Source of the DNA: a virus
Virus record (IMG/VR): IMGVR_UViG_3300025736_000018
Span: 652 to 64,651 of that record
Direction: 5' to 3' (one strand)
DNA length: 64,000 bases
In this document: positions 9,083-61,239 of the stretch, one piece after another
Numbering within the stretch: position 1 is the stretch's first letter
How the letters are laid out: each line of letters begins with the position of its first letter
Translations under genes and position numbers: made by a program
The notes under the pieces: generated by a model
Database searches by the model: none
Told to the model about the DNA's origin: nothing
Seen by the model: the letters and a program-made list of their open reading frames with translations, nothing else

Positions 9083-9456
9083 GGGGCTGTAATGGTTTCG
9101 ACAGAGATAGAGAAGATTGAATCGGCACATACCGTGGATAGTTTAACTCAATCACGTTAAAAAACGTTAAACAAAGCTTAAACGCAAACAATTTACAATT
9201 AGCAGCATAGTCTGCCGGTAATTAAGTATACTGTTTATTTCATTCAGTTGCTTTTGTATACCGTCATTAAAAATGAATAAGCTAGTTTGATGATCAACTA
9301 TAGCTAGTCGAAAACTTAAGTTATCTATGCTTTAATTAGTGGCAAGTCAGGCAAACGTTAAGGCGAATTAAAAATAATATAATTTGACTAAGTATGTAAG
9401 TAAGTTGACAGTTAGCTTGTTTTTGGACGTCGGTTCAATTCCGACCAGTTCCACCA
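9083..9456 (+). ncRNA. ssrA: tmRNA (SsrA), tag ANNLQLAA ending in UAG
   Basis: 5' GGGGCTGTAATGGTTTCGACAG; 3' GGACGTCGGTTCAATTCCGACCAGTTCCACCA (tRNA-Ala-like T-arm and CCA); internal frame GCA AAC AAT TTA CAA TTA GCA GCA TAG. Confidence 0.8.
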
Positions 9457-9543
9457 AATTATTAAAAAAGAGGTTTTAAGATAAAAATTAATATAACGAG
9501 AGTTAGTTTTTTAAGAACTATTGAAAATAGGGAGTAAAAAGAA

Positions 9544-9783
9544 ATGTTTCTTAAAAGAAGTTTTTATAGAATAATTACTGCAAAATCATTATCAGAACTC
9601 CAAAAGCTTGTTAATGATAAGTTAGAGAATGGCTGAGAATTAGTATTATACACTCCTTCATATTCAACTTATCATTATGATTATGATAGAAGATATGATT
9701 ATGTAAGAGAGATTGTTTTTAATTGTGATGATCAAGAAACATATCATATAATGAAAGATATACTTAATAACGAGGAGGTATAA
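9544..9783 (+). CDS. small DUF4177-like protein (paralog 3) with in-frame TGA
   Basis: LVNDKLENG-TGA-ELVLYTP aligns with LQDGWKL and KAGWKP of paralogs 1 and 2 (Trp by TGG there). Confidence 0.55.
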
Positions 9784-9845
9784 TTATGAAACTTTAAATG
9801 GAAATCAGGGTTGTATAGCAGTATTATTAATTATACAATGAACAC

Positions 9846-9920
9846 AGGCTCATAGTTCAATGGCTAGAATAAAGGTCTCCAAAGCCTTTGATGTGGGTTC
9901 GAATCCTACTGAGCCTGCCA
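9846..9920 (+). tRNA. tRNA-Trp (anticodon CCA)
   Basis: acceptor AGGCTCA/TGAGCCT, anticodon arm AAGGT-CTCCAAA-GCCTT, T-loop TTCGAAT, encoded CCA. Confidence 0.8.
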
Positions 9921-9981
9921 TTTCTTTTAATTTTTACTATTTTCTGAAAATTAACTATATTATAATTAGGAGGTATAGGTA

Positions 9982-10161
9982 ATGGATATTGTAGAAGAGA
10001 TAATGGAGCTTATAGAAAAGATTAGAGAATTAGACGGTTTAGCTTCTGGAGTATGGAAGACTGCTTTAGGAAATAATTGGCCTGTGGATTATGAGGAAAT
10101 AGCTAAATGTGAAATTGAAATTAAGACAAAAATATATGGTATAATAGAGTGTACTAATTAA
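9982..10161 (+). CDS. small hypothetical protein
   Basis: 59-aa ORF with GGAGG RBS. Confidence 0.35.
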   Translation: MDIVEEIMELIEKIRELDGLASGVWKTALGNNWPVDYEEIAKCEIEIKTKIYGIIECTN

Positions 10162-10173
10162 TTATATATATGT

Positions 10174-10248
10174 GCGCCTATACTCAACCGGTAAGAGGCT
10201 CGTCTGATACGCGAGTAGATGATAGTTCGACTCTATCTAGGCGTACCA
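10174..10248 (+). tRNA. tRNA-Ile (anticodon GAU)
   Basis: acceptor GCGCCTA/TAGGCGT, anticodon arm CTCGT-CTGATAC-GCGAG, T-arm GATAG-TTCGACT-CTATC, encoded CCA; D-stem weak. Confidence 0.7.
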
Positions 10249-10273
10249 ATAAAATTTAAAGGAATAAAAATAA

Positions 10274-10462
10274 ATGATAAAGAGTAAGAAAAAGCTAGAT
10301 ATATTTCTATATCTATTATTAAGAGATTGTGCAATTCCATGTGGTGAAGTCGAAAAATTAGTACAAATAGCAGGAGCAACTGATGATGAAGCAGAATTTT
10401 CCAATGATTATTTAGCAGGTTATGCTAAAGATATACGTAAAAGATTAGAAGAAGGAAAATAA
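10274..10462 (+). CDS. hypothetical protein
   Basis: 62-aa ORF. Confidence 0.4.
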   Translation: MIKSKKKLDIFLYLLLRDCAIPCGEVEKLVQIAGATDDEAEFSNDYLAGYAKDIRKRLEEGK

Positions 10463-10467
10463 AATAT

Positions 10468-10671
10468 ATGAATATTGTAGAAAAACATGCATATAGTGAA
10501 ATAAATAGAATAAGAGAGATTGAACGAGATATACTTGAGTTGCGAAAAAGACTTAGTATTAAAAATTGTTCGAGAGAATCTATTTGAGATTCAATTCAAA
10601 ATTTAGAAGATGAAATTTATGTTATGACAAAAGAAATGGTTGTTTCAATTCTTCAATTAAATGCTGAATAA
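10468..10671 (+). CDS. hypothetical protein (one in-frame TGA)
   Basis: 68-aa ORF continuous if TGA is Trp. Confidence 0.4.
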
Positions 10672-10792
10672 AGAAATATATATATGCGAAAAGTATTACA
10701 CTCACCAAAGATAGGAAGTATTAGTAATGAGAGCATCAGATGTGCAATCATTAAGATAAAGAGGAAAAAAAAGAGGAAAAAAGGAAGAACAA

Positions 10793-11398
10793 ATGAATAG
10801 AATTAATTTTAACAAGTCATTATTATACAATCTTGACACATCAGATTTTTGTAATAGAGAAAACGTAAATTACATTAAAGATTGACTTAGAGAAAATCGC
10901 AGTGGATTATTAATTACGAACAGACAAGTAGGAAAATCTCAAGCTTTGATTGAGCTTTTAGTTGAGGAGTCTAATTCATATTTATTGGCTTTTTCACAAG
11001 CTTCTGCAAGGAATTATTTTAATAAGATTGTAAATTTATATAATAAATATTGTTCATCTTTAATAGATTATGACCCTGAAGGGTTCAAAGAGTTTAAAAA
11101 AGATGTTAAAGAGAGAATAGTTCATATGGGTAGAAATTACCCAATTACAGCATTATCAGGACGACCAGTAATGCCAACTAAATCTTTTTGGAATAATCTT
11201 TATATTGATGAGTATTATTTTAACAAATGTAATAGTGAAAAATTTAAAGGTGCTGTATCAACAATGAAATTTCCGATGGAAATTAAAAAACTTCATGTTG
11301 ATTATAGATGTAGTGAAGAGGAATTAAAAATGACATACAGTGAAGAGCAATATAAAAAAGAGTATTCACTAGATTTTAGAGTAATAGAGGAAAACTAA
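10793..11398 (+). CDS. hypothetical protein with P-loop-like NRQVGKS (one in-frame TGA)
   Basis: ATG 10793 joins the 10946 ORF through KDW(TGA)LREN. Confidence 0.45.
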
Positions 11399-11465
11399 AA
11401 ATGAAATTTATTCAAAAGTGGAATAAGAAAAGAGAAAAATATTTAGGTAGGGTATAAAAAAGACT

Positions 11466-12224
11466 ATGAAAAACAAGAAGATTTTTATAATTAGACCAGT
11501 TAGGCGTACAAACGACGAAATCAATCGAGCAATTGAAGAGTTTAGAGAAGAGATGTATAATGAAGGAGTTGATGTTTATGATCCGCTGCTTTGTACTGAT
11601 CAAACAGTTAATGAGCTAGAAATCTGTTTACAGAATTCAAATGCAATTGAAGCGTGTGATGAGGTTTGGATGTGGTATGATAGAGGAAGTACTGGAAGTC
11701 ATTTTGATATTGGAGTAGCATTTGCAGCAAGAAAGCCGATTTATATAATTAATGATGTTAGCGATTTCGTCAATAGTGCAAGTAAAAACTTCATTAAGAT
11801 GATAGCTGATTATGATAGAATGCTAGACGGTGATCTCCTAAGTATTTATAGTTCAGGAGAATGGATAGAAGGAAAAGAAGAGCCTCACGTTTTACAAGAA
11901 GCTATAGATTTGTTTGAAGATGAAGTAAAAAGACTTCAAGCAAAACAAAATGAAGAAGAACTTCTTCGAAAAGAAGCTACTGATCAGTTAAAGTCAATGT
12001 TAGATGAAAACAATATTGTTGAAGAGGTGTATGATAGATTATTTGATGATGAGCGAATTGACATCGATATCTATATTAAACCTTTTAAAACCGCAGAGCA
12101 TATTGTAGTTGATTTTAGTGTAGCCCAGCCGGAAGAGTCTGAATCGATTATAAATCGTTGTAGAATAGAACCTCGATTGTCTTGGGATTTTGTATCTAAA
12201 ATAAAGGAGAACATAGATGAATAG
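11466..12224 (+). CDS. hypothetical protein, possibly a nucleoside 2-deoxyribosyltransferase-like fold
   Basis: 252-aa ORF; KIFIIRPVRRTNDE...VYDP pattern; weak. Confidence 0.3.
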   Translation: MKNKKIFIIRPVRRTNDEINRAIEEFREEMYNEGVDVYDPLLCTDQTVNELEICLQNSNAIEACDEVWMWYDRGSTGSHFDIGVAFAARKPIYIINDVSDFVNSASKNFIKMIADYDRMLDGDLLSIYSSGEWIEGKEEPHVLQEAIDLFEDEVKRLQAKQNEEELLRKEATDQLKSMLDENNIVEEVYDRLFDDERIDIDIYIKPFKTAEHIVVDFSVAQPEESESIINRCRIEPRLSWDFVSKIKENIDE

Positions 12225-12582
12225 TAAAGTAATAGAAGTATTGAATAAATATGCTGCTATAAAATGGCCAAAAGACTCAGAACCAACAGCTAATGAGAGA
12301 CTTGAAATACTATGGGAATGTGGAACACAATGTGCAAAACTCGATAGAGATCCTCATAGATGGTGGGATGAAATAACAGTAATAAAAGAGTTTAGAATTT
12401 CAAATGGTGAAATATATTATATTGGATATGGTTGGGCTGAAGCAAATAGAGATGAATCAATATTTGATCTAGGCTGGGAATTTGATGAAGATACTATTGA
12501 ATTTTACAAACCGTTTGAAGAAACTGTACTTAGTTACAAGATCATAGATATTAATAAGGTTGACGATACGCCAAAAGAATAA
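12217..12582 (+). CDS. hypothetical protein
   Basis: 121-aa ORF. Confidence 0.5.
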   Translation: MNSKVIEVLNKYAAIKWPKDSEPTANERLEILWECGTQCAKLDRDPHRWWDEITVIKEFRISNGEIYYIGYGWAEANRDESIFDLGWEFDEDTIEFYKPFEETVLSYKIIDINKVDDTPKE

Positions 12583-12591
12583 ATTATATAT

Positions 12592-12667
12592 GCCCGGCTA
12601 GCTCAACTGGAAGAGCATTTGAGTTACATTCAAAAGGTTATAGGTTCAATTCCTATGTCGGGTACCA
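12592..12667 (+). tRNA. tRNA-Val (anticodon UAC)
   Basis: acceptor GCCCGGC/GTCGGGT, D-arm GCTC-AACTGGAA-GAGC, anticodon arm TTTGA-GTTACAT-TCAAA, T-arm ATAGG-TTCAATT-CCTAT, encoded CCA. Confidence 0.8.
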
Positions 12668-12722
12668 GATAGATTAACAAAGTATGTAAGCAATCGAAGG
12701 CAAAAATGAAGAGTAGAGGGTC

Positions 12723-12745
12723 ATGACCAATGATGACCAATGATG
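12723..12745 (+). repeat. direct repeat ATGACCAATG x2
   Basis: seen in the intergenic region after tRNA-Val. Confidence 0.5.
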
Positions 12746-12828
12746 CTCAATTTAAGCCAGAAGACAGACAAAAGTTAGTATGGCAAATGTTTATTCTTCG
12801 CTTACATACTTTTTTTAAGTTACTATTT

Positions 12829-12886
12829 TTTATAACTTGCCTATATTATAATTATCTTATTTTTATAAAACGGAGGTTTATTAAAA
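12829..12886 (+). promoter_or_regulatory. reiterated promoter cassette (copy)
   Basis: GTTACTATTTTTTATAACTTGCCTATATTATAAT then GGAGGTTTATTAAAA-ATG. Confidence 0.55.
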
Positions 12887-13414
12887 ATGGTAAGTAATAG
12901 AATTACTAGAAAAATAATTGATGAGATTATATTAATACATAATACTAACAAGGTTGAATCAATTAATAGAGGCGGTTGCGGGATTGCAGCATTAGCAATG
13001 TTACGATATATAGAAAAGAAATATTCAGAGTACTTAAGTGAAGTTGAAATTGTTTATTTTTATAATGGCATGAGTATGATGATGTCAGAGAATCGTAGTA
13101 TTATAGAAGAGTTAAAAGAAAATAATAATAGTAAAATTCACCCGCATGTACCATCTCATATATTATTGAAATTAGATAAATTTATTTTTGATGTAGAAGC
13201 TAAAGATGAATACGAGAGTTATATTAAATTAGGAAAGTATGAAGGTACTGATATTGTCTCAGTAAGTTCTATTGGAATAGAATTTTTATTAGCTACTATA
13301 AATGATTACTCAATTGCATCTGGATGGAATTTGGACTTTAAAAGAAGAAGTGGAATTAAAAAACTACAAAAAATATATGGCATAGATTTATCTGATATTA
13401 TAATAATAGAATGA
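12887..13414 (+). CDS. hypothetical protein
   Basis: 175-aa ORF after cassette. Confidence 0.55.
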   Translation: MVSNRITRKIIDEIILIHNTNKVESINRGGCGIAALAMLRYIEKKYSEYLSEVEIVYFYNGMSMMMSENRSIIEELKENNNSKIHPHVPSHILLKLDKFIFDVEAKDEYESYIKLGKYEGTDIVSVSSIGIEFLLATINDYSIASGWNLDFKRRSGIKKLQKIYGIDLSDIIIIE

Positions 13415-13440
13415 ATTAAAAAGAAGGAAGTTTACAGATT

Positions 13441-13893
13441 ATGTATATTACAGGAAGTGGAGAGATTATAGAAGATTTTAGCAAAATACTTAATACAATT
13501 AAAGAGAAAATGGCAGCAGGTTGATATCTTGCAATTGGCTGTGATAGTCAAAAAGCTAAAAGAAGACGTCATGTATTTGTACAAGTAATAGCTCTTATAA
13601 ATGAGGGTCACGGTGGAATTTTCTTTGTTAAGAGAATGAGAGAAGATAAAAAATATTCACTCGCTGAAAAATTATATAAAGAAGCTGCAATGTCAATTGA
13701 AGTCGCAGAAGAGTTAATTGCAAATGGTATAGATATTGATAAGCTTGAAATTCATTTAGACTTATCAGAGGGTGGAAAATCTGGTAAATTCATTAAAGGC
13801 ATTGTAGGAATGTGCGGTGCTTATGGTTTTGAATCTAAAATTAAAGATGAAGCATGGGCTTCATCAGGAATAGCCGATAGGTATTCGAGGTAA
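13441..13893 (+). CDS. hypothetical protein (one in-frame TGA)
   Basis: ATG 13441 joins the 13636 ORF via AAGW(TGA)YLAIG. Confidence 0.45.
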
Positions 13894-13897
13894 AAGA

Positions 13898-14110
13898 ATG
13901 GAATGTGTATACTGTAATGGAGATTATAAGCCGTTTGATAGCGCAATATCAATAGTAAAAAATTTAAGTCTGTATTGTGGTGATGTTTATTTTCAAGCTC
14001 GTTGTTCACACTGTGGAAAGGAATCAATCTTTAGAACAAAGATTGAAAATATCTCAGAGCTTGAAGATAACATATCTAAAAATACAGGAATAAGCTTAAA
14101 GATTAAATAA
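13898..14110 (+). CDS. Zn-ribbon protein
   Basis: CVYC...CSHC. Confidence 0.45.
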   Translation: MECVYCNGDYKPFDSAISIVKNLSLYCGDVYFQARCSHCGKESIFRTKIENISELEDNISKNTGISLKIK

Positions 14111-22623: not shown

Positions 22624-23277
22624 ATGAAAATAATTAAACCAAGTTTTGAAATTGAATCGGAGATAGTTGGTTGAGCTCTACTGAAACATATTGAGAAGGC
22701 AGGTCGAACTGCATATAAAAGTGAAGATAAAATAACTGAAGACTCTGCAGCTAAGTTTGTTAAGATGATAATTGAAAGAGGTCACTTATCAGTATTAGAA
22801 CATTATTCTGTTACCGTAAGAGTAATTTGTGATAGAGGAGTAACACACGAAATAGTTAGACATAGATTAGCAAGCTACACACAGGAAAGCACTAGATATT
22901 GTAATTATAGTAAAAATAAATTTGGTAATGAATTAACGTTCATTGAACCTATATTTTGAAAAGAATCAACAGTAGACGATGCTAGCAAATATATGATTTG
23001 AGCAGATATGATGAGACATATTGAAAAAGCATATATCCGATTAGTCGAATTAGGTGCAAGTCCACAAGAAGCGAGAAGTGTACTCCCGAATTCATTGAAG
23101 ACAGAAATAGTTATGACGATGAATTTAAGAGAGTGGTTACATTTTTTTAAACTTAGAACTTCACTAGCAGCGCATCCGCAAATGAGAGAAATAGCGATTC
23201 CAATGTTAGAAGAGTTTAAAAAACAAATTCCAATAATATTTGATAGTCTTAATATAGTAAATCTTTTAGTAAGATAG
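22624..23277 (+). CDS. thyX: flavin-dependent thymidylate synthase ThyX (three in-frame TGA)
   Basis: ThyX signature RHRLASYTQESTRY; the 22765 and 23008 ORFs join in one frame when TGA is sense. Confidence 0.8.
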
Positions 23278-24235: not shown

Positions 24236-24496
24236 ATGACAAACCAAGAAATAGCGGTTGAAATTGCTCAATGGGCAAATAATGGTGACGCCAAGAACTT
24301 AGAGGATATCGAATACAGGAAAATAGGGGATTTTATTTCAGTGAGCTATACCAGTATTTCCACAAGGGTAACTATTGAGTATAATTTTTTATCTGATTAT
24401 ATGCTTGTATACTATTCTCTAAATTTAATTGAAACACCTCGTTACGGAATATTTAACGTAAGGAGAGTAGTAGAACTATTTAGGAGTATGAAATGA
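24236..24496 (+). CDS. hypothetical protein
   Basis: 86-aa ORF. Confidence 0.45.
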   Translation: MTNQEIAVEIAQWANNGDAKNLEDIEYRKIGDFISVSYTSISTRVTIEYNFLSDYMLVYYSLNLIETPRYGIFNVRRVVELFRSMK

Positions 24497-25695
24497 ACGG
24501 AGTAATATTTGAAAAAGATAGTGGAGTAAAACCAATCAAGCATTGGCTACCATTTAATGAAATAGAAGAAGGAGCATTACAACAGGCACGAAACTTAGCA
24601 TCTCTACCATTCATATTTAAACACGTAGCATTAATGCCGGACTGTCACCAAGGATATGGAATGCCGATCGGCGGAGTTATAGCGACTAGAAATGTGGTAA
24701 TTCCAAATGCAGTCGGTGTTGATATTGGTTGTGGAATGTGTGCTGTGAAAACACCATGGAAAACACATGAGATACCACGTAATGAAATATTACGTATTAT
24801 GGCTGAGATTCGTAAAAGAATACCACTTGGAAAAAATAGTCATAATAGTCCTCAGATAGATGCAATGGTAAAATTAATGAATGGTCGTACTGGATACGAT
24901 CTCGGGGAAATTAGCTTTCGTCGCTATGAAGCATCTATGACACAATTAGGAACAATGGGTGGTGGAAATCACTTCATTGAAATTCAGAAAGATAAAGAAG
25001 AGAATATTTGGGTAATGGTTCATTCTGGTTCACGTAACTTAGGTAAAAGAATCGCTGATTATTACAATAATATTGCTATTAAGAATAACAAAATCTGGCA
25101 TACGCAAATTCCTACAGAATATCAATTAGCATTCTTACCGTTTGGTACTGAATATGCTCAAAATTATCTTCGTGAAATGAACTTTGCAGTTGAGTATGCT
25201 TTTGCAAATAGAGCATTAATGATGGAAAGAATTAAAGAATCGTTTGATATTATTATGAGTTGGAAAACTATTGATTTATCTAGCATGATTAATATAGCTC
25301 ATAACTATGCTCAAATGGAGAATCACTTTGGCGAAAATGTTTTAGTTCATAGAAAGGGAGCCACTCTTGCGAGAACAGGAACTATAGGAATTATACCAGG
25401 CTCTCCAGGTACTCCATCGTATATAGTTAATGGACTCGGAAATCCAGATAGCTTTATGTCTTGCTCTCATGGAGCCGGCAGATTGATGTCAAGAACCAAA
25501 GCTCAAAATGAATTGAGCCTTAATGAGCAAATTAAAATATTAGATGATCAAGAAATCATTCATGGAATCAGACATGAAAGAGATTTAGATGAAGCACCTG
25601 GTGCTTATAAAGATATTAATAGTGTTATGTATAATCAGGAAGATCTTGTCAAGGTAGTTACTAAGTTGATGCCGCTAGCAGTAATAAAGGGGTAA
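24493..25695 (+). CDS. rtcB: RtcB RNA 3'-phosphate/5'-OH ligase
   Basis: MPDCHQGYG, VGVDIGCGM, GGGNHFIEIQ, HSGSRNLG, HRKGAT, CSHGAGR. Confidence 0.9.
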   Translation: MNGVIFEKDSGVKPIKHWLPFNEIEEGALQQARNLASLPFIFKHVALMPDCHQGYGMPIGGVIATRNVVIPNAVGVDIGCGMCAVKTPWKTHEIPRNEILRIMAEIRKRIPLGKNSHNSPQIDAMVKLMNGRTGYDLGEISFRRYEASMTQLGTMGGGNHFIEIQKDKEENIWVMVHSGSRNLGKRIADYYNNIAIKNNKIWHTQIPTEYQLAFLPFGTEYAQNYLREMNFAVEYAFANRALMMERIKESFDIIMSWKTIDLSSMINIAHNYAQMENHFGENVLVHRKGATLARTGTIGIIPGSPGTPSYIVNGLGNPDSFMSCSHGAGRLMSRTKAQNELSLNEQIKILDDQEIIHGIRHERDLDEAPGAYKDINSVMYNQEDLVKVVTKLMPLAVIKG

Positions 25696-39040: not shown

Positions 39041-39117
39041 ATTAAAGCTGTAACTTATTATGAGAGTTTGTATGAGTGATTGGTTGACTAAATAGCTAAA
39101 TTTTTATAATAAATAAC

Positions 39118-39209
39118 TTACTATTTTTGCCTTTTCTTTTATATTATCATTGTAGTATAAGAAAGGGCATTATTTTATTATAATTAAAAGAAAGAAGGAA
39201 AATAAATTT
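39118..39209 (+). promoter_or_regulatory. reiterated promoter cassette (degenerate copy)
   Basis: CTTACTATTTTTGCCTTTTCTTTTATATTATCAT ... AAGGAAAATAAATTT-ATG. Confidence 0.4.
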
Positions 39210-40010
39210 ATGCAAATATCACACGAATCACCGTTATGCTTATTAGAAGAGAGTAGAAAATATAATGATTATGATTATGCTCTAGTTCATCTATTTGATA
39301 GTAATGGCAAATATTATAATTTTTTTGAAGAGTCATTGAAATTAGGAAGACGCGTTATTTTAGATAATAGTATATTTGAACTTGGTACCGCTTTTGATGC
39401 AGAAGAGTTTTCACAATGGATTCACACATTAAATCCGACTGATTATATAGTTCCAGACGTTTTAGAGGATTGTGATGGAACTATTGCACAGTTTGAGAGT
39501 TGGATAGAGAATCATGGAGATCTACCAGGAAATAAAATAGGAGTAGTCCATGGAAAGACATATGAAGAAATGGTTAAGTGTTATCAATATATGGAACGAA
39601 ATGCTGATAAAATAGCTTTTAATTTTGTTGATAAAGTGTATGATGATTTTTGCATGCAAGGAGATATTGGACTTGATTTTGGTAGAATGACTGGTAGAAT
39701 GGATTTGATCCAAAAAATGGTTGAAGATGGTATCATTAATACAAATATAAAGCATCACATATTAGGTTGTGTATTACCTCAAGCAGGTAAGTTTTACAAA
39801 CAATTTGATTGGATAGAATCCGTTGATACATCAAACCCTATCATTCACGGTATACTAAATATTAAATATCAAGAACAAAAAGGCTTATTTACAAAGAATA
39901 AAATAAAAATGGTTGATATCTTTGATAAAAAAGTTGATAGAGAACAATGGAATGACATACAATATAACATTGAACAATTCAGAAAGATTTGGAGTATAAA
40001 TGAACATTAA
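39210..40010 (+). CDS. hypothetical protein; candidate TGT/DpdA-like 7-deazaguanine transglycosylase
   Basis: sits between QueC and FolE2; ILDNSIFELG loosely resembles the TGT-family LDSGGFQ motif. Confidence 0.3.
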   Translation: MQISHESPLCLLEESRKYNDYDYALVHLFDSNGKYYNFFEESLKLGRRVILDNSIFELGTAFDAEEFSQWIHTLNPTDYIVPDVLEDCDGTIAQFESWIENHGDLPGNKIGVVHGKTYEEMVKCYQYMERNADKIAFNFVDKVYDDFCMQGDIGLDFGRMTGRMDLIQKMVEDGIINTNIKHHILGCVLPQAGKFYKQFDWIESVDTSNPIIHGILNIKYQEQKGLFTKNKIKMVDIFDKKVDREQWNDIQYNIEQFRKIWSINEH

Positions 40011-40833
40011 TGATATAAAACTACTTAATAATGATACTGTATTTATGATGACCTGTGGGAAGGTTAAATATCATTTTGAATATGATGTGCCGTTACATAA
40101 ACTTTACAAAGGAGCATTTCATAATGCAAGACAAGATTTTATAAATTTAGTCGCGGGTAAAAATAATTACTACTACGTCACACCATCAGGTCCAGGGATT
40201 GTTTCTGCAACAACATTGTGTGGTTATTATGATATGATAACGCCTAATTGTAAATTAATCGATGAAACTTTTATAATCAAACATAGAGAAAATGCATATA
40301 AACATTCTCCAATTCTTAAAACTGCAAAAAATGTATATTATATTGGTGACATTAGATATTTTACTTTTTTACAAAAAGTTTTTTATGATAAAAATATTAT
40401 TATGATTTTTAATGAAAAATCAGGTATGGGGACTCAAATAGGGCTTTTAAGAAGGTTTGTAAATTATTATAATAAGCCAACATATTTTAAACATTTAAAA
40501 ATACAAGATGACAATAAAATTATAATTCTTTATAAGAGAAATAAAGTAGAATTTCTTAATGTCTTTACAAAAAAAGATAATTTATATATTAATGATGTTG
40601 AGATAAAACCACATACATATATTAATAAATTTTTGAAAAATAATAAAATAGACGTGGCAAAATACATACCACGTTCTAATTCAAGAATATTATTATCAAT
40701 AGTTAGTAAAATAATTAATCCAGTTTTTGGCTGTAACTGGGTAAAGGAAGAAATTAAATTTGACGATAAAATTGATTATTATTTAAACAAATACTTCAAT
40801 AAAAATATTGTTAAATTATTAAAGGAAACATAA
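40000..40833 (+). CDS. hypothetical protein
   Basis: 277-aa ORF. Confidence 0.5.
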   Translation: MNINDIKLLNNDTVFMMTCGKVKYHFEYDVPLHKLYKGAFHNARQDFINLVAGKNNYYYVTPSGPGIVSATTLCGYYDMITPNCKLIDETFIIKHRENAYKHSPILKTAKNVYYIGDIRYFTFLQKVFYDKNIIMIFNEKSGMGTQIGLLRRFVNYYNKPTYFKHLKIQDDNKIIILYKRNKVEFLNVFTKKDNLYINDVEIKPHTYINKFLKNNKIDVAKYIPRSNSRILLSIVSKIINPVFGCNWVKEEIKFDDKIDYYLNKYFNKNIVKLLKET

Positions 40834-41361
40834 ATGAGAATAGCATTATCCGGTGCCCAGAGTGTTGGAAAATCTACAATATTGAAGGCAATGAAAAAAT
40901 TGCCTGAATTTAGTAATTACGAATTTGTAGAAGAAATTGTCAGAAATTTACATAAAAAATATGGAATTCAAATTAATGAACAAGGAAACGGAGACACTCA
41001 GTTGATGATTGCTAACGCTCATTATTTTAACGGATTCAAAAAGAATGTAGTTCTGGATAGGTGTATATTGGATTGTCTTGTTTACACTCACTTATTGGAA
41101 GATAACATTGAATATTGGATTTTTAACTATATACATAATCTATGGGAAAGGGAAATGGAAAAGATTGATTACGTCTTTTACTTTCCACCAGAGTTCAAAA
41201 TAGTTGATGATGGTTTCCGGAGTTTAGATGAAGAGTTTCAACTAAAGACTCATGAAGTTTTTCACAACTATATTGGTCGAAATAATGTAACCAATGTACA
41301 TACAATTATTGGAACGGTAGAGGAAAGAATGAAAAAAATAAAAGATATAATAGGAGTATAG
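40834..41361 (+). CDS. P-loop NTPase/kinase (AAA_28, NadR-kinase-like)
   Basis: Walker A IALSGAQSVGKSTIL. Confidence 0.45.
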   Translation: MRIALSGAQSVGKSTILKAMKKLPEFSNYEFVEEIVRNLHKKYGIQINEQGNGDTQLMIANAHYFNGFKKNVVLDRCILDCLVYTHLLEDNIEYWIFNYIHNLWEREMEKIDYVFYFPPEFKIVDDGFRSLDEEFQLKTHEVFHNYIGRNNVTNVHTIIGTVEERMKKIKDIIGV

Positions 41362-41367
41362 AATTAA

Positions 41368-42318
41368 ATGAGTTTACCCGACGTACAACAAAACACAACT
41401 GGATTTAAAAAGCTTCCAATAGAGAAAGTTGGAGTGAGAGGAATCAAAGTTCCCTTTCATATATTCCAGAAAGGTAATTCAAAAAGCTTCAGTACAATAG
41501 CAACAATTTCAAGCTACTGTAATCTTGTAGAAGATGTTAAAGGGATAAATATGTCTCGCATTAGCAGAGCAATTAATGAAGTGTTGCAGAGAAATAAAGA
41601 TGGATTTACAAATTTAAATGATTTTGTATATGCGCTTCAAGAGGCTCATGGAGCAACTGATATTTATATTAAGGCAAATTTTGAATATTTATATGATACA
41701 TTATCTCCAATTGAAAAGGTATCGTCAATAGAGCCGGTCAATATTACATTTGAGAGTAAACTAAAAGATGATAAATTATTCAACTACATTACAGTTAAAA
41801 CTACTGAGATGTCATTATGTCCTTGTAGCAAAGAAATGTCATTATTAAAAAATAACCTGACAATGACTGAGAGTTTACTTATACAACATGCTCAATTTCC
41901 TCCGGTATTACTTAATAAAATAAACAATGCTGGCTTTGGAGCACATAATCAAAAATCTACAATTGAGGTTACATTTGAATTTATAGAAGGAAGAACAATG
42001 TGAATCGAAGATATAATGGAAATTATTAGAGAAAATGTATCATCTCCTACATGATCAACTCTTAAAAGAGGAGACGAGAAATATGTAACTGAAAGGTCTT
42101 ATATGGGTGGGTATTATGATGAGAATAAGAAATTTGTAGATACTGGCGGTGGTCCAATGTTTGTAGAAGACATTGTTAGAAATATAGCTTTTGAATTAGA
42201 TAAAGAATTAGATAACAGAATATTAGACTATTCTATTATAGTTAACAATCATGAATCTATTCATTCAGACGATATAATGGCTACTGCAATAATGACAGCA
42301 GGGCGAGAATTAAAATAA
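41368..42318 (+). CDS. folE2: GTP cyclohydrolase I type 2 (FolE2/MptA-like; two in-frame TGA)
   Basis: LPDVQ...IEKVGVRGIKVP, MSLCPCSKEMS, C-terminal HESIHSDDIMATA; the 41368 and 42103 ORFs share one frame. Confidence 0.6.
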
Positions 42319-51812: not shown

Positions 51813-53321
51813 ATGATTAATGAAGAGGACAAGAACGTAAAGAGTCAAAAAAAATGAGCAATTGGAGATATTAGAAACGGATATCCGGTATTGCCATTAG
51901 AAGAAAGAAAAACAATTCTCTTGCTTAGTGACGATGCTAGAATGCATTCCGGCGTCGGGACTATGTCAAGAGAAATTGTTTTGGGCACCTGTCACTATTT
52001 TAATTGAGTTCAAATAGCTGGAGCAATTAAAAATCCAGATATAGGTAAAATAGTAGAGCTTTCGCAATCAACAGTAGATGCAACTGGCGTACCGGATGCT
52101 CAATTTAAATTATATCCAGTAAACGGATATGGTAATCCAAACGTATTAAGGATGGTATTAGCAAATGAACCTCAAGTTAACGGATTATTACATTTTACAG
52201 ATCCAAGATTCTGAGGTTGGCTATATCAAATGGAAAATGAAATTAGACAATCAATTCCAATAATGTATTGAGCTTTGTGAGACAATCTACCATACCCAAA
52301 ATGAAATAGAGATTTTTATAGAAGTTGTGATTTAATAATGAGTATTTCTAAACAATCAAAAAATATACATGATGTTGTATTAAAAGGTTATGCAAAAAAA
52401 GAAAATATTGAGGTTACATATGTGCCGCATGGCATAAATCCTAATGTTTTCTTTCCTATTGAAAATAAAGAGAATGATGTTGAGTATTCCAATTTTAAAA
52501 ATACAGTTCTAAATAGAGAAGAATATGATTTCATTATTCTTTATAATAATAGAAACCTCGGTAGAAAACGTACAGCTGATATTATGACTGCATTTCAATC
52601 CTTTAGTGAGAAGGTAGGTAATAAGAAAAAGCCTTTGCTACTAATGCGTACAGATATTAGTGATGATGGAGGTACAAATCTTCATGCAGTATATAGAGAC
52701 CTAATGCCCGAGATTAATGTAAAGTTTATACCAAGTAAAATATCACCTAGTCAAATGAACTATTTATATAACATGTCAGATTTAACAATTAATGTCTCTT
52801 CAGCTGAAGGATTTGGATTAGCTTCTGCAGAATCTATAATGGCAGGTACTCCGATATTAGTTAATTGTACCGGTGGGCTTCAAGATCAATTAAGAATGGT
52901 CAATGATGATCATTCACCAGTAGAATTTACAGAAGATTTTCCGAGTAACTCTTGTGGAGTACATAGAATTCATGGTCCATGAGCATTTGTAGTTTGACCT
53001 CAACAAAATCTGATAGGCTCTCCGCCAACTCCATATATCTATGATGATAGAGCAAGCATTAATGATATTACAGAAAAGATGTATGAAGCGTTTAGCTTAT
53101 CTAAAAAGAATATGAATGATAGAGCAGTGAAAGGACGTAAGTGAATATTAAATAATCTATCATCTCCCATTATGTGTGAAAAAATGACGAAAGATATTTC
53201 CAAATGTGTATATAGTTTCAAAGGTAGAAAGCATTTTGATATTTTTAAAATAGAAAGCAATGAGAAAGATGATAATACACTTGCTGGAATATGAGATGAA
53301 ACAATTAAAAAGTGATTATAG
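51813..53321 (+). CDS. glycosyltransferase, GT-B fold (GT4-like), about 11 in-frame TGA
   Basis: 502-aa frame from ATG 51813 to TAG 53319-53321; MNYLYNMSDLTINVSSAEGFGLASAESIMAGTPIL matches the GT4 C-terminal motif. Confidence 0.7.
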
Positions 53322-53331
53322 GTTTTAAAAA

Positions 53332-54981
53332 ATGAACTATAGAAACAATTCAACAAATATAACAAAAGTACTTTATGGGCCTGATTTGACAAAAGAATTA
53401 CAATCAGGAATTGAAAAGCTCGCAACAATAATTGCATCAACACTCGGTCCTAGGGGAAAAAATGTAATTATAAATAATAAGAAGAATAATATCCCTTTCA
53501 TTACAAACGATGGAGCTACCATAGCAAAGAGTATCTGTCTTGATAATGATTATGAAAATGCAGCAGTACAGCTCTTGAAACAAGCAGCATTAAAAACTGA
53601 GTCTGATGCTGGTGATGGAACAAGTACTGCTATTGTTTTGGCTAATGCAATTATAATGAATACAAGAACTGCAATGGAAGAGTATCCAAATCTTAATGTT
53701 AATAAGCTAAAAAGAGATCTTGATTATTGATTAGAAATTGCATTAGGATATATTGACAAGCAATCATTTGAGCTAAAAACAATTGATGAAGTAAGACATA
53801 TAGCTACAATATCAGCAAACAATGATGAGAGTATAGGAAACATTATAGCTGAAGCAATTGAGCTGGTTGGTAATGATGGAATAATTAACGTAGAGGAATC
53901 TCAAACAGGACTTACAGAAGTCATTAAAGTAGTTGGAATGGAAATTAAAAAGCCAATTATATCACCATATTTCATCAACAATCAACAAAAAGGAAATACC
54001 GATTTTAACGAAGAAACATATATATTAATTATAGATGATAAAGTATATCAACTAAGTAAACTATTACCAGCTCTTCAAGCTGCAACTAAAAGTAATAAAC
54101 CTATATTGATTATAGCTGAAAATATTGAAGGCGAAGCTCTTAGTGGACTAGTTGTTAATGCAGTTAAAGGTAACTTAAAAGTTTGTGCAATAGAAGCTCC
54201 TCATTTTGGTGACGAGCGTAGAAAAGCGCTTGAGGATATAGCCAAATTTACAGGTGCAACAATTTTGAGCAGTAAATATGGACCTCACACATTAGATAAT
54301 TTTGAGAATAAATTTCTCGGTGTAGCAAAGAGAGTTACTGCCGGATCGAGCTGTGTTATTCAAGAAGGTAAAGGTACAGGGTTAGAAGCTTATAAAGAAG
54401 GATTAAAACATCAGCTTAAAGATGAAGATAATAAACTTGCACTTAGAGACAAAGAAATATTAAATATTAGATTAGCTAACTTATCAGCAAACGTTGCAGT
54501 ATTAAAAGTTGGAGCTAGTACTGATGCTGAATTAATTGAAAAAAAAATGAGAATTGATGATGCAATTAGAGCTACTAAATGTGCTATAGAAGAGGGAATA
54601 ATTACAGGTGGAGGAATGTCCTTTTATAAAACATCATTAATATTAGGAAGAGAGTGAGATAAAAATTGAAGTGATGAGACAAGTGTCGCTAAAGCAATAT
54701 TGCAGAAATCATTACAAAGTCCACTACAAACAATAATTCAAAATTACGGTGGCGATGAAAATGAAATATTAATTAAGATTTTTAATGAAGATACTCCAAA
54801 CGTAACATTTAATGCTAATGATGGAAAAATAGTCAACGCATTTGAACACGGTATTATTGATCCAGTGAAAGTAGTTAAGAGCGCTTTAACAAATGCAGTA
54901 AGTATTGCAGGAATGATAATTACAACAACTGCAGCAATAATATATGATAAGGAAAAAAATAATGAATACATCAGTTACTAA
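53332..54981 (+). CDS. groL: GroEL-like chaperonin (three in-frame TGA)
   Basis: DAGDGTSTAIVLA, equatorial ATP-site GGG, C-terminus IDPVKVVKSALTNAVSIAGMIITT; the 53332, 53938 and 54700 ORFs share one frame. Confidence 0.8.
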
Positions 54982-56275
54982 GAAAAAAGAAGAAAAAGAG
55001 AAAGACAAAACATTTTGCTTACTTCATGGACCATTTAACACAGTTTCTGGTTACGGAGCACATGCAAGAGATATTGCAAGAGCAATAATTAAAAAATACC
55101 CCGATTGAGATATTAGATTATTTGACTGTCCATGAGGAAACACCCCAAGAAACTATTTAATGAAGTGAAGAGACGATGATTTAATAAATAGATTATTACA
55201 TGACGGGAAATTACCGCGAAAACCAGAAATATATATTCCAGTACTAATACCTCCTGAATTTAATCCAATAGGAAAATTTAATATTGGTATTACAGCCGGG
55301 ATAGAGACGACATTATGTCATCATTCATGATTAGAAGGTATAAATAGAATGAATTTAAATATTGTACCATCTAAGCATGCTAAAGACGTATTTGAAAAGT
55401 CTAATTACAGCAAGAGAAACAAAGGTAATAATGAAGTCATCGGACAATTAAAATCTGAAAAGTCTATTGAAGTTTTATTTGAAGGTGTAGATACGGAAAT
55501 GTTTCATAAAACGGATATGATTTCTAAAGAGGTCGCTGATTGTATGGATCAAGTTGAAGAGTCATTTGCATTCTTATTTGTAGGGCATTGATTAGACGGA
55601 GCATTTACTCATGATAGAAAAGATATTGGTGGATTAATAGAAACGTTTATCAATACATTTAAAAACAAACAAGTAAAGCCAGCATTAGTCCTAAAGACTA
55701 GTGGTGCGACATTTTCAATTATTGATAGAGAAAATATAATGGAAAAGATAAAGCAAATAAGGCATGATGATACTATGCCAAATATATATCTTATTCATGG
55801 TGATATGTCAGACAAGGATATTAATGGACTATACAATCATCCAAAAATTAAAGCTATGATATCATTAACGCACGGAGAGGGATATGGAAGACCATTAGCT
55901 GAATTTGCCGCTTGTGGTAAGCCAATTATTGCAACAAACTGATCTGGACATATAGATTTTCTTCATCCTAATTATTCAGTATTAATAAGTGGTGAATTAA
56001 GAAATGTACATAAGTCTGCAGCTAGAGAAGGTATGATACTTGAAAATAGTCAATGATTTTATGCAAACTATGCGAAAGTAAAAGAAGCATTATTAGATGT
56101 ATATAAGAATTATGGAAAACACAAAAAGAAAGCTGTCAAGCAAGCTGATATAATTAATAAGCATTATACATTGGATGCTATGGCAGATAAGCTATTTGAA
56201 ATATTTGAAAAGTATCTACCTGTATTTCCAAAAGAAATTCAATTAGCATTACCAAAATTAAAGAAGGTCGAGTAA
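54962..56275 (+). CDS. glycosyltransferase, GT-B fold (six in-frame TGA)
   Basis: SLTHGEGYGRPLAEFAACGKPIIATNW(TGA)SGHIDFL matches the GT1/GT4 nucleotide-sugar motif; start overlaps the GroEL end. Confidence 0.65.
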
Positions 56276-56881
56276 ATGAAAAAAGAAGAAGAGAAGACTA
56301 GTAGAAGTCTTAGTGATTTAAATAGTAAAATAATTAAAGTAGTTGAACCAAATGTAATATTTTTTTATGCTGAACGTTTAGACTATGAAAGTTCATTAGA
56401 GCTTAATGCAGCTATATGTGAGGTAACAAATTATGTTGAAAAGACAAACAAAACACAAACAAATCTAGAAAATTATACTGACCACATTGACTTACATATT
56501 TTTTGTCCAGGTGGACTAGTCTCTGCTGCATTTAGTAGCGCAAATATAATTAAAAGTAACTCGATAAATATTCATACATATATTGACGGATATGCAGCAT
56601 CTGGTGGAACAATAATTAGTATGGCTGGACATAAGAGATATATGTATAAAAAATCAGTTGCGCTAATTCATGAACCTTTTGGTGGGTTCATTGGAAAAGC
56701 TTCTGATTTTGCAATTGAAAAAGAAAATGCTGATTTAGAATTTGCTAGAGTATTAAATTATTACTCAGAAATTATGGATATTTCGAAAGATGCCATTTCT
56801 GAATTATTGAAAGAGGAGAGATTATTAAACGCAACACTTTGTCTCAAGTATGGAATTGTTGATAAAGTATTACAAAATTAA
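56276..56881 (+). CDS. ClpP-like serine protease (S14 family), candidate prohead protease
   Basis: FCPGGLVSAA (oxyanion loop), GYAASGG (Ser), ALIHEP (His). Confidence 0.7.
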   Translation: MKKEEEKTSRSLSDLNSKIIKVVEPNVIFFYAERLDYESSLELNAAICEVTNYVEKTNKTQTNLENYTDHIDLHIFCPGGLVSAAFSSANIIKSNSINIHTYIDGYAASGGTIISMAGHKRYMYKKSVALIHEPFGGFIGKASDFAIEKENADLEFARVLNYYSEIMDISKDAISELLKEERLLNATLCLKYGIVDKVLQN

Positions 56882-56903
56882 AAAAAGAGAATTAAAAAAG
56901 AAA

Positions 56904-57617
56904 ATGCAAAAACAACAGACGAAAGAGCAGTTAGAGAAAATATTTAAAGACAGAAAGTTCAACGTAGAAATTAAAGAATTTGAATCATCAGCAGAGGACG
57001 GTCTCAAATTTGTAGAAAAACGAGATGATATTGAGGATAGCTCAAAAGATATCCAGCTCGATGAATTATATGAAAATGAAGATGTGACTCCAGCAAACAT
57101 TCAAGCACAGCTTGATAACTATGAAGAAATGGAAGAGTTTCCTTCAACAGTAAAAAGAATTCAATGTCCGAGATGTAGTTCAATGAACTGTTTCGAAGAA
57201 GAATTCCCAGAATTATCAGATGGAACAAAAATGAATGGATATTTATGTAAGAATTGCGGTTATGTTTCCAATAGTGAATTTAAACACGACAGTATTTATT
57301 ACACAAATGCAATTAATAGACTTCCTACTATGGTAAAGAATCTAGAATTCTATGATGAAAAAAGAGAAATCTATTGGTTTCTTGCAATAGTGCAAACCGA
57401 CAATGGTTATGTATTTCCAGAACCTGATGAAAAAGATTGACATTGAACATATTGACCAACTATATTTATTCCGGAAGAAGAAAAAGAAAACTATCCAATA
57501 AAAGTGGACGGAGAAACTATAGGCTATTACGAACATAGATATGATATCGATAAAGCTCAACAATTTGATAAGACAGACTTCTATAAAGCACTTAGAGCTG
57601 TTGGACTAGAAGAGTAA
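56904..57617 (+). CDS. acidic Zn-ribbon protein, possible scaffold (three in-frame TGA)
   Basis: CPRCSS...CKNCG; sits after the ClpP-like protease. Confidence 0.4.
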
Positions 57618-57626
57618 AATTAAACT

Positions 57627-58133
57627 ATGTCATCAAATTTTGCAAAGAAAAAAAAGAAGAAGAAAACCAGTACTAAAGATTTTTCTAGACAACATGAAAA
57701 AAATATTGAAAAGAAAATAAAAACTACACTTGGTAAGCTAACTCCTGGTATGATTGCAAGATTTAATTATAGGGGTAAGGATGTACATGAGCCTCGCCCC
57801 TTAGTACTTATTTTAAATCCAAGATGAAAGAATCATTGTCATGCGATTGCATTACGTGTGCTAACTGAAGCAGAATTAATGCAATTAGCTAAAATGGTTA
57901 AACTTAGTGTTGGACAAAAAATAGCAAAAAAAGTTAAATTCTTACGATTAGGAACAAAGGCAGATATTGGAAACCCAGAAAGATTTTACAAACAAAAAAT
58001 AAAGCCTTATATGAGAAGAATAGATGAAAACGCATATCGTACATATAATACTCGCGGAATATCTAATGTTAATATTATTGATTATAGGTTTAAAGATATG
58101 GATCTAAGAACTTCAAAAAAGATTAAGAAATAA
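57627..58133 (+). CDS. basic hypothetical protein (one in-frame TGA)
   Basis: the 57627 and 57858 ORFs are in frame across one TGA. Confidence 0.45.
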
Positions 58134-58161
58134 ATTACTATTTTTAAAGGAAAGCTTATAT

Positions 58162-58402
58162 TATGATTAATACAATAGAAAAAATGGGGATCTTTTTAAC
58201 CAAGAAAAGATTTGTTAAAGCAACACAGCTTGATGAAATGGAAGAGATTATTGATAAAAACGGTGAGAAGTTTGTAGGCTTGCCAGGCGATTGAAAAATA
58301 ATTGATGAAAGCGGATACATATACTTCATAAGTAAATGAAAATTTAAAGAGTTGTATCAACCATATAATGATGCTGCATTTGATATGTATATAAAGTTAT
58401 AA
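58162..58402 (+). CDS. small protein with apparent +1 frameshift at AAAAAC-C-GGT (58255-58262)
   Basis: frame 0 MINTIEKMGIF...IIDKN then frame +1 GEKFVGLPGDW(TGA)KIIDESGYIYFISKW(TGA)KF...MYIKL*. Confidence 0.35.
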
Positions 58403-58414
58403 AAAGAGAATTAA

Positions 58415-58613
58415 ATGAAATTAATATGTGAGATCAAAGCAGTAAGTGATGCTTATAGAACAAGAGAAGAGTGTGGCTGAAGAGCAGGCAACGTGCAGAT
58501 TGGCGATGAGATAAGTAAAGTCATTGAAATATCAGATTCTGTAGTACGAGATACTCTACTTGTTGAATCTATAAAAAAAGAATTAATAGAGTTTATACAA
58601 AATTTAAATTAAA
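58415..58613 (+). CDS. small protein with apparent +1 frameshift at CTT-T-GTT (58559-58565)
   Basis: MKLICEIKAVSD...RDTLL then frame +1 VESIKKELIEFIQNLN*. Confidence 0.35.
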
Positions 58614-58631
58614 AAGAAGGAAGAAAAGAAG

Positions 58632-58847
58632 ATGAGAGTAAAATTTAATTATGAAGTTAACGAAATATTTCATGAAATTGAAATTGAAGCATGTAAAATT
58701 GAAGAAATAAAAAGCTTATTAGGTATTGTAATGTCTATAATTAATAATGAGTCAATGAAAGAAGTTCATATAGATCCGCTAGAAGACGAAGACGAAGGCG
58801 AAGGTGCTGCAGTTGATGAATTACCAACGACAGTGAAATGGAGATAA
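58632..58847 (+). CDS. hypothetical acidic protein
   Basis: 71-aa ORF. Confidence 0.45.
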   Translation: MRVKFNYEVNEIFHEIEIEACKIEEIKSLLGIVMSIINNESMKEVHIDPLEDEDEGEGAAVDELPTTVKWR

Positions 58848-58852
58848 ATAAA

Positions 58853-59170
58853 ATGAAAGTAGAAATTGAAGCTGATGATTATAATGCATTTAGAATCGCT
58901 TTGGAAGCTGCTGTAGAATTGATTAAGACAAAAAATCTTAAAAATACAGAAACGCATATACATTATCATTATAGCTATACATTTCCTAATTTTTGAGATA
59001 AGCCTGGTATCCCATTCTGGAGAGAATCCTTGTGGAATCCAGATTATCTAGATCAAATAACGTCAATATCTTGTGATGGAAGTGATTCAACTTATACATT
59101 TTCATCAACTTCAGATGAGCCAACTCATATTGATGGCATCAACTTTGACGGACCAATGAGTATATTTTAA
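58853..59170 (+). CDS. hypothetical protein (three in-frame TGA)
   Basis: 105 aa continuous: ...TFPNFW(TGA)DKPGIPFW(TGA)RESLW(TGA)NPDYL. Confidence 0.4.
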
Positions 59171-59192
59171 TAAAAAAGCTTAGGAGGAGTTT

Positions 59193-59858
59193 ATGATAAG
59201 TATTAGCTACGCGATTACCGTTTGTAACGAAGCTGAACAATTAGCTGAATTACTTGATAAGCTATTAGAAAAAATTGATATAAATGATGAGATAGTTATT
59301 CTTCATGATGAAGAAAATACAACACAAGAAGTTATAGAAGTTTGTAGAAATTATCAATATCAGTTTGGCAAGGGAATGGTACAAGGATTTTCACACAAGT
59401 TAAATAATGATTTTGCAGCACACAAAAATTTTCTAAATCAATGTTGCACGAAAGACTTCATCTTTCAAATAGACGCTGATGAAACTCCTAATTGTGCTTT
59501 ACTTAATAGTATTAAAGGAATAATTAATGAAAACCCCACTGTAGAGTTATATTATATACCTCGCATAAATACTGTTAGTAATATTACAGATGATCATATT
59601 AAGAAGTGGGGATGGAAAGTAAATGAGTACGGGTGGATAAATTTTCCAGATCATCAGAGTAGAATATATAAAAGAGATAATGAAAGAATATTTTGGGTAA
59701 ATCCAGTACATGAACGAATAATAGGTCACGAGCAGTTTGCACTACTTCCAGGACAACCGGAATATTGTCTATATCATAGAAAAGATATAAAGAAGCAAGA
59801 AGATCAAAACAAGTTTTATAATCAAATAATGAAAGGGCGTATAACGTTTACAAGGTAG
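59193..59858 (+). CDS. glycosyltransferase family 2 (GT-A fold)
   Basis: N-terminus ISISYAITVCNEAEQL and the DxD motif FQIDADE. Confidence 0.65.
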   Translation: MISISYAITVCNEAEQLAELLDKLLEKIDINDEIVILHDEENTTQEVIEVCRNYQYQFGKGMVQGFSHKLNNDFAAHKNFLNQCCTKDFIFQIDADETPNCALLNSIKGIINENPTVELYYIPRINTVSNITDDHIKKWGWKVNEYGWINFPDHQSRIYKRDNERIFWVNPVHERIIGHEQFALLPGQPEYCLYHRKDIKKQEDQNKFYNQIMKGRITFTR

Positions 59859-59864
59859 AGATAA

Positions 59865-61163: not shown

Positions 61164-61239
61164 AGCAATATGTCACTACATGCCTTGAGATTTAGATTTA
61201 GCAATACTTAATGTTAATACAATAAAAAAATCAAGCTAT

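Follow-up and report, generated by a model that had tools for sequence, protein, structure and literature searches.

A complete tmRNA gene in a TGA-recoded jumbo phage, and a conserved phage gene pair of PTH2-like protein and tRNA(CUA)

Introduction

Can a transfer-messenger RNA (tmRNA) gene carried by a phage be a working one, and what would a genome that suppresses its stop codons gain from it? The question is raised by a 374-nt element at positions 9083-9456 of a 64,000-nt stretch of viral DNA (IMG/VR record IMGVR_UViG_3300025736_000018, positions 652 to 64,651), here called the window; the element and all window features described below are on the + strand. An earlier note on this DNA took the element for a phage tmRNA whose tag ends at UAG, placed near a PTH2-like hydrolase, a tRNA set and an amber suppressor able to read the tag's own stop. 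On the evidence of its sequence, the element is confirmed as a genuine, complete, full-length one-piece tmRNA gene.

A complete one-piece tmRNA gene

The Rfam covariance search that the earlier note had proposed matched the element to the tmRNA family RF00023 end to end (model 1-374) with 121.4 bits, against a gathering threshold of 47, and an E-value of 6e-47. ARAGORN called a tmRNA over the same span, with the tag peptide ANNLQLAA*. Five independent metagenome assemblies contain the gene with 100% identity, so it is not an assembly artefact; ten loci were retrieved that match the window at 99.5-100% identity, and those five of them that reach across the tmRNA have it without any change. Its 5′ end reads GGGGCTGTAATGGTTTCGAC and its 3′ end GGACGTCGGTTCAATTCCGACCAGTTCCACCA, and the terminal letters, told as RNA, are GGGGCUGUAAUGGUUUCGAC at the 5′ and GGACGUCGGUUCAAUUCCGACCAGUUCCACCA at the 3′ end.

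The ends form a tRNA-Ala-like domain with acceptor stem, G3:U70, discriminator A, encoded 3′ CCA and T-arm. In the 7-bp acceptor stem (tmRNA 1-7/364-370), GGGGCUG at 9083-9089 pairs with CAGUUCC at 9446-9452; it contains G4:U69 besides G3:U70, the alanine identity pair, and was recovered by reading the sequence, by the Rfam alignment and by the minimum free energy (MFE) fold. Discriminator A73 and the CCA follow directly 3′ of it at 9453-9456. The T-arm GUCGG-UUCAAUU-CCGAC (9429-9445; tmRNA 347-351/359-363) has maximal posterior probability in the Rfam alignment and is also found in the MFE fold.

Helix P2 is present as well (20-28/335-343, 9 bp including four G:U), with further segments including 45-50/310-315. 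An H-type pseudoknot, PK1, found by complementarity search at 9133-9172, is built of stems 51-55/70-74 (CGUGG/UCACG) and 59-65/84-90 (GUUUAAC/GUUAAAC), and its score was matched by 2 of 200 shuffled sequences. From its 3′ end to the resume codon at G102 there are 11 nt, and a U and an A occupy positions -5/-4 relative to that codon, which we take to be the same as in Escherichia coli tmRNA.

The tag frame at 9184-9210, agreed on by ARAGORN (coding part 102-128), the sequence and the folds, reads GCA AAC AAT TTA CAA TTA GCA GCA TAG, eight sense codons followed by a stop, with the resume codon at 9184-9186 and the TAG at 9208-9210. The tag as the earlier note had read it, ending LAA and stopping at UAG, is thus upheld, as is the geometry of resume codon and frame. 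A C-terminal LAA is the main ClpX determinant. Helix 5 is much reduced, to a 4-bp hairpin (tmRNA 120-123/130-133) that holds the UAG (126-128) in its loop.

The region expected to hold PK2-PK4 (9216-9391; tmRNA ~134-309) is AU-rich and of the right length, has low posterior probabilities in the Rfam alignment and offers candidate stems only. Folding of the pseudoknots, another check that had been proposed, thus bore out PK1 and failed to bear out PK2 and PK4, whose candidate scores were reached by 73 and 22 of 200 shuffles, respectively; the PK3 candidate (9 of 200) does somewhat better than shuffles. The tmRNA as a whole is AU-rich with many G:U pairs, and its nested MFE z-score is only -1.53, a low value that is expected because the RNA is pseudoknotted and AU-rich.

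An open reading frame (ORF) of 131 amino acids from the ORF list (8686-9081), with no Pfam or PHROG match, lies immediately upstream. A single nucleotide separates its TAA stop from the 5′ end of the tmRNA, a gap that implies co-transcription and 5′ processing.

Proposed role

We take the RNA to be functional because every need of trans-translation that can be read from a sequence is intact. It is, quite probably, a standard tmRNA carried by a TGA-recoded jumbo phage, and its value would lie in extra ribosome rescue during infection. The steps of its action are drawn from established tmRNA biology; its expression, charging, partners and the reason for its retention are all what we infer. The tmRNA would be cut from a polycistronic transcript, with RNase P making the 5′ end and the CCA already encoded, and the host alanyl-tRNA synthetase would charge it with alanine via G3:U70. 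With EF-Tu and SmpB, the latter from the host or from a part of the genome outside the window, it would enter ribosomes that have stalled on reaching the 3′ end of an mRNA without a stop codon. Translation would resume on GCA (position 102) and add (A)ANNLQLAA, RF1 would terminate at UAG, and the C-terminal LAA would mark the product for ClpXP-type proteolysis.

Two sources of stalled ribosomes may be considered. Stop suppression, through TGA read as Trp and through the tRNA(CUA) described below, would push ribosomes past normal stops into non-stop complexes; read-through caused by suppressors has been documented to give rise to substrates of trans-translation (Ueda et al. 2002, as cited in PMC3985003). 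RNA damage during infection is suggested by the RNA ligase, RtcB, CCA-adding enzyme and PTH2-like protein that the window encodes. That the phage would manage stalled ribosomes in a stop-suppressing genome, the view of the earlier note, is plausible, and the link between stop-codon suppression and trans-translation load is worth testing.

Several observations weigh against a functional role. Helix P2a is weak (9 bp with 4 G:U), and the scores of PK2 and PK4 are indistinguishable from chance, PK2-PK4 being dispensable in E. coli. Promoter and terminator scans stayed at background level, which is uninformative in AT-rich DNA. Pfam scans found no SmpB among window ORFs of at least 70 amino acids. 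No close relative of the tmRNA was found by blastn against 50,697 GenBank phages, nor by exact or degenerate patterns in IMG/VR, and covariation analysis was impossible because the searches yielded no tmRNA orthologue in a related phage. In five distant relatives, reached through the RNA ligase (43-47% identity) and provided with tRNA arrays, no tmRNA lies within 10 kb of the ligase gene, so the tmRNA is a lineage-specific acquisition, accessory rather than core.

Genetic code

The expectation that this genome recodes stop codons was correct for TGA, read as Trp, and wrong for TAG. In-frame TGA codons lie inside the conserved domains of GroEL, ThyX, DnaE, DegT, glycosyltransferases and an epimerase, and ORF coverage of the window reaches 86% with TGA as sense. 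The sum of TGG and TGA is constant at ~1.4% of codons along the whole window, while the TGA share of Trp codons, 0/19 over the first 8 kb, has risen to 22/33 (22 TGA, 11 TGG) by the last 8 kb. When the DegT-family enzyme is aligned with its PDB homologues, two of five TGA positions fall on a conserved Trp and one on a Tyr. Reading TGA as Gly (code 25) was rejected on the constant sum and on the alignment of TGA with Trp. We therefore read TGA as recoded to Trp, along a gradient or in blocks. The TGA-free block holds the PTH2-like gene, the tRNA(CUA) and the RNA ligase, together with the ORFs that precede the tmRNA; in-frame TGA appears in ORFs from ~9.5 kb onward, and at the left end the genes for translation and RNA repair fit the standard code.

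No tRNA(UCA) was detected in the window by ARAGORN or at the Rfam gathering threshold, nor at E <= 0.1 over positions 1-14000; such a tRNA is detectable in only ~35% of code-4 phages (bioRxiv 10.1101/2021.08.26.457843). The window also lacks any release factor, RF1 included, and tryptophanyl-tRNA synthetase (TrpRS). A tRNA-Trp (CCA) lies 390 nt downstream of the tmRNA at 9846-9920 (ARAGORN; Rfam, 65.4 bits), and in its alignment the D-stem has U11-A24. We take this to be the classical Hirsh UGA-suppressor configuration of E. coli tRNA-Trp, presumably natural in some bacteria too. It might help to read TGA, the window being without tRNA(UCA).

TAG terminates 21 of the 102 ORFs of at least 70 amino acids, with new starts directly after, and read-through would lengthen those ORFs by a median of 30 codons. 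TAG recoding (code 15) was rejected on these 21 terminations and because no ORF fusion is supported. TAG is an ordinary stop in this phage, and this includes the UAG of the tag.

A conserved PTH2-like/tRNA(CUA) gene pair

The neighbours named in the earlier note, a PTH2-like protein, a tRNA set and an amber-suppressor-type tRNA, are real. The tRNA with anticodon CUA (4378-4452; ARAGORN; Rfam, 61.4 bits) is of type I with G73, an encoded CCA and the anticodon loop CUCUAAA, and lies 4.6 kb upstream of the tmRNA. Comparison by similarity gave no amino-acid isotype assignment.

The PTH2-like ORF (3731-4357, 208 amino acids) ends 21 nt upstream of this tRNA. It has a helical N-terminal half and a C-terminal PTH2-fold domain (~residues 110-208). 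Pfam PTH2 (PF01981) scores 20.9 bits, under its cut-off of 23, and PHROG assigns the ORF to family 3668, 'hydrolase'. A profile built from four distant homologues matched only archaeal Pth2 in the PDB (E 0.27). With the AlphaFold model (predicted local distance difference test score 81.7), the Foldseek top 12 in the PDB were all Pth2/Bit1, at probability 1.0 and target-normalised template modelling scores of 0.57-0.70. The name 'PTH2-like' holds at the level of the predicted fold. Two motifs, Q..HA and an acidic D further along the chain, are invariant in the family. In the 'GK' motif the Lys, which has a catalytic role in PTH2, is Ala or Gln in the phage proteins when they are aligned to AF2095; because this Lys is not conserved, canonical PTH2 activity is not assured.

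Four metagenome contigs encode homologues of this protein. In three of them a tRNA(CUA) lies right beside the gene; the fourth (L142, 1.1 kb) has only a tRNA-Ser. One of these three, the phage-like contig ERR6015524_124386 (our locus L140), terminates ORFs with all three stops and also carries a tmRNA (183-612) with a 27-codon tag that ends ...LQLAA and stops at UGA. The LQLAA ending is thus common to two phage tmRNAs that are otherwise unrelated.

Scanning IMG/VR with an alignment of the family gave 135 PTH2-like relatives, of which 80 loci were fetched; the following counts refer to these. A same-strand tRNA(CUA) is present at 73 of the 80 and within 1 kb at 69; it is the nearest tRNA at 67, lies downstream at 61, and is the only kind of tRNA in ~20 kb at 15. 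The loci span 27 to 67% G+C and hold 61 distinct tRNA(CUA) sequences. Across them there was no TAG-specific gain in ORF coverage, and, since L140 moreover uses all three stops, the pair is no sign of TAG recoding.

In GenBank phages, tblastn with the window's own PTH2-like protein found no match. A GC-rich member of the family was used as query instead and located members in cluster C mycobacteriophages, Xanthomonas phage XacN1, Stenotrophomonas jumbo phages and several published huge phages. In the cultured mycobacteriophage Cane17 a tRNA(CUA) lies 250 nt beyond a gene annotated 'peptidyl tRNA hydrolase', and a tmRNA lies 5.2 kb further along. XacN1 has its PTH2-like domain as the C-terminal portion of a 280-amino-acid 'hypothetical protein', ORF364 (record 243756-244595), away from tRNAs; the two CUA suppressor tRNAs of this phage sit in its terminal repeats, so that the co-occurrence is at the level of the genome, without adjacency.

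A PTH2-fold protein and a tRNA(CUA) are a conserved gene pair across many phages, and we found no paper that points to this linkage. Until now, amber-suppressor tRNAs have been an unexplained oddity in phages without TAG recoding. It is a tentative and rather unlikely idea that the pair forms a dedicated, undescribed two-gene unit in TAG-stop phages, and that together with the tmRNA it makes up a termination and rescue kit in some lineages, namely this phage and the cluster C mycobacteriophages. In one version, the nascent chain would be transferred to the tRNA(CUA) at UAG and then set free by the PTH2-like protein, which would amount to RF1-independent termination or controlled read-through, with the UAG-ended tmRNA tag under the same control. 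The pair is the item most worth following up here and a more useful product of this work than the tmRNA itself; as it is present in a cultured, genetically tractable mycobacteriophage, it offers a concrete pair for experimental work.

Alternative explanations

Four other accounts of the tmRNA were weighed against ribosome rescue by a standard tmRNA. It is unlikely that the phage tmRNA serves to out-compete that of the host and to impose a tag that host adaptors and proteases handle differently. Such altered tagging starts from the tag being short, without an SspB-type site and with an unusual ...QLAA end, features that would change the fate of rescued proteins. A degenerate pattern of the tag, run against representative genomes of 185,579 bacterial and archaeal species, gave four chance matches and none in a tmRNA, which agrees with altered tagging, as does the shared ending in L140. 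The C-terminal LAA is retained, however, and the same pattern search pointed to no host whose tag could be compared. Among the matches listed, a metagenome scan with the pattern of the tmRNA termini found almost only tmRNAs with ANDERFALAA tags, at most 65% identical; we take these tags to be betaproteobacterial. Set beside bacterial tag families, both the termini and the tag with its AN..LAA form have a proteobacterial look, which is weak evidence.

A second account follows the earlier note and gives the suppressor the task of reading the stop of the tag itself. With the phage tRNA(CUA) decoding the UAG, tagged proteins would end ...LQLAA-X-SAGN and ribosomes would be rescued without a degron; in a variant, the PTH2-like protein would control when the UAG is read. 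The layout allows for this, as the tag stops at UAG, translation meets the next in-frame stop, TAA at 9223-9225, four codons on, the read-through product ANNLQLAA-X-SAGN would be without a C-terminal LAA, and the tRNA(CUA) 4.6 kb upstream is bona fide. But in seven further phage tmRNAs that we read, those of loci L140, L164, L166, L168, L194 and L223 (near the PTH2-like gene) and that of Cane17, the tag stops at UAA five times, at UGA twice and never at UAG; the L223 locus as fetched is without tRNA(CUA), and the tag call in L168 looks doubtful. A UAG tag stop is also unremarkable here. TAG ends ~21% of the ORFs, and such a stop is expected by chance about 1 time in 5; with TGA as sense, the tag could end only in UAA or UAG, and since the latter closes about one ORF in five, the UAG of the tag is no evidence of design. 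An efficient suppressor would, furthermore, extend 21 phage proteins by that median of 30 codons. Judged from these tags, no conserved design couples the suppressor to the stop of the tag, and such switching is decidedly unlikely in this phage.

A third possibility, which we rate very unlikely, is an inactive relic, a host ssrA copy that was acquired, for example by integration at ssrA, and is now drifting with no role in infection. Drift would fit an AT-rich RNA with many G:U pairs, including G4:U69 and those in P2a, a helix 5 down to 4 bp, PK2 and PK4 scores like those of shuffled sequence, and the absence of a tmRNA near the RNA ligase of distant relatives. It fits poorly with an acceptor stem with G3:U70, T-arm, PK1, spacing, U-A at -5/-4 and LAA frame with its stop that are all intact, and the gene is full-length, unlike the 3′ fragment typical of attachment sites. 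Pfam scans found no integrase in the window, and the same gene neighbourhood recurs in unrelated phages.

That the window is no phage at all but a bacterial chromosome or plasmid natively using code 4, with its own ssrA, is extremely improbable: low G+C, TGA read as Trp, which is also Mollicutes-like, and genes for GroEL, NAD salvage and sugar modification would agree with it, and against it stand a head maturation protease (phrog_94, 110 bits), a strictly one-strand gene order with all window ORFs on the + strand, mostly ORFs without family match, tRNAs interspersed with small ORFs, closest protein relatives on viral contigs, and a first ~9 kb without in-frame TGA (0/19 Trp codons), unlike a native code-4 genome. 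The phage origin given in the earlier note is thereby sustained.

Source phage and other genes

The RNA ligase gene 1.8 kb upstream of the tmRNA recurs with 100% protein identity on 22 contigs (JGI, ENA and SRA-derived), the longest of 176 kb, and the genome is accordingly at least 176 kb in length, at 30% G+C. Contigs of 87-176 kb are on record for it, k141_139540 of ENA ERZ27315921 among them. Blastn found no DNA match in the 50,697 GenBank phage records, where the best DnaE match is 27% identical, and distant protein relatives were located on IMG/VR contigs. The source is an uncultured jumbo phage without close described relatives. A search with a gene near the right end of the window returned only a 1.8-kb contig.

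Further genes of the window encode DnaE, a PD-(D/E)XK nuclease, ThyX, dUTPase, NAD salvage enzymes, GroEL and sugar-modifying enzymes. A group for RNA repair and translation comprises the RNA ligase, which bears a PHA02142 OB domain, RtcB, a cREC-REC protein (cyclic-phosphate processing receiver), a CCA-adding enzyme with an HD domain, nine tRNAs and the PTH2-like protein; the RNA-repair set lies at 6086-7252, 24493-25695, 32764-34251 and ~35001-35444 and suggests a defence against host tRNA or anticodon nucleases. A complete 7-deazaguanine precursor pathway (QueD, QueE, QueC, FolE2) at 36683-42318 adjoins the dUTPase gene, with ThyX apart from it at 22624-23277. These genes suggest modified DNA bases.

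The TGA-rich block at 51813-63074 holds two GT4 glycosyltransferases, a GT2, a homologue of DegT-family sugar dehydratases/aminotransferases and an NAD-dependent epimerase, with a full-length GroEL-like chaperonin at 53332-54981 and, mid-block, the head maturation protease at 56276-56881. The latter ORF, being ClpP-like, had been a candidate for the tag's partner protease and was rejected in favour of head maturation. In one distant relative (L001, an IMG/VR contig of 106 kb), a group I intron (Rfam, 63.3 bits) lies at 7951-8205 in a tRNA-rich region.

Comparison with known systems

The gene shares with bacterial one-piece SsrA the tRNA-Ala-like domain, P2, PK1, the GCA resume codon, the LAA tag and the stop. 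It differs in being phage-encoded and AU-rich, in its 8-codon tag, in a helix 5 of only 4 bp and in that SmpB was not found nearby.

The earlier note called tmRNA genes rare in phages. They are uncommon, but phages with tmRNA are already known (PMC7162821, PMC12484599, PMC5966550), and the window adds one from an uncultured lineage without close relatives. Metagenomic huge phages and phage G likewise have a tmRNA beside tRNAs and translation genes (PMC7162821, PMC12484599); tmRNA and SmpB both occur in huge phages (PMC7162821), some of which carry SmpB and release factors, whereas none of these is present in this window. Another tmRNA of the huge-phage type, at an IMG/VR locus (L022), is similar to ours only in the universally conserved ends. 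The presence of PTH2 in jumbo phages has been noted before (PMC7824862), and the CUA suppressors of XacN1 have been described as lacking identifiable target genes (PMC5852040).

With the code-4 phages of gut microbiomes (bioRxiv 10.1101/2021.08.26.457843), for which that study leaves tmRNA unmentioned, the window shares the use of TGA as Trp mainly in one part of the genome, with translation-related genes that are free of TGA, which agrees with the stage- or block-wise recoding reported there. Its differences are a tRNA(CUA) in spite of TAG being kept as a stop, and no tRNA(UCA), RF1 or TrpRS.

The closest likeness in gene order is to the cluster C mycobacteriophages (Bixzunavirus, Cane17/Bxz1), in whose arrays a tmRNA, a PTH2-like gene and a 'Pyl' or 'pyrrolysine' (CUA) tRNA are on record (PMC5966550). 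Cane17 infects a GC-rich Mycobacterium and in this work gave no sign of stop recoding, whereas the window phage recodes TGA; its tag has 25 codons, ends ALV and stops at UGA, and it has no DNA or tag similarity to the window. Both phages nevertheless have the same one-strand order of PTH2-like gene, tRNA(CUA), other tRNAs and tmRNA, with similar spacing, the tmRNA lying ~5 kb downstream in Cane17 and the three elements at 3731-4357, 4378-4452 and 9083-9456 here.

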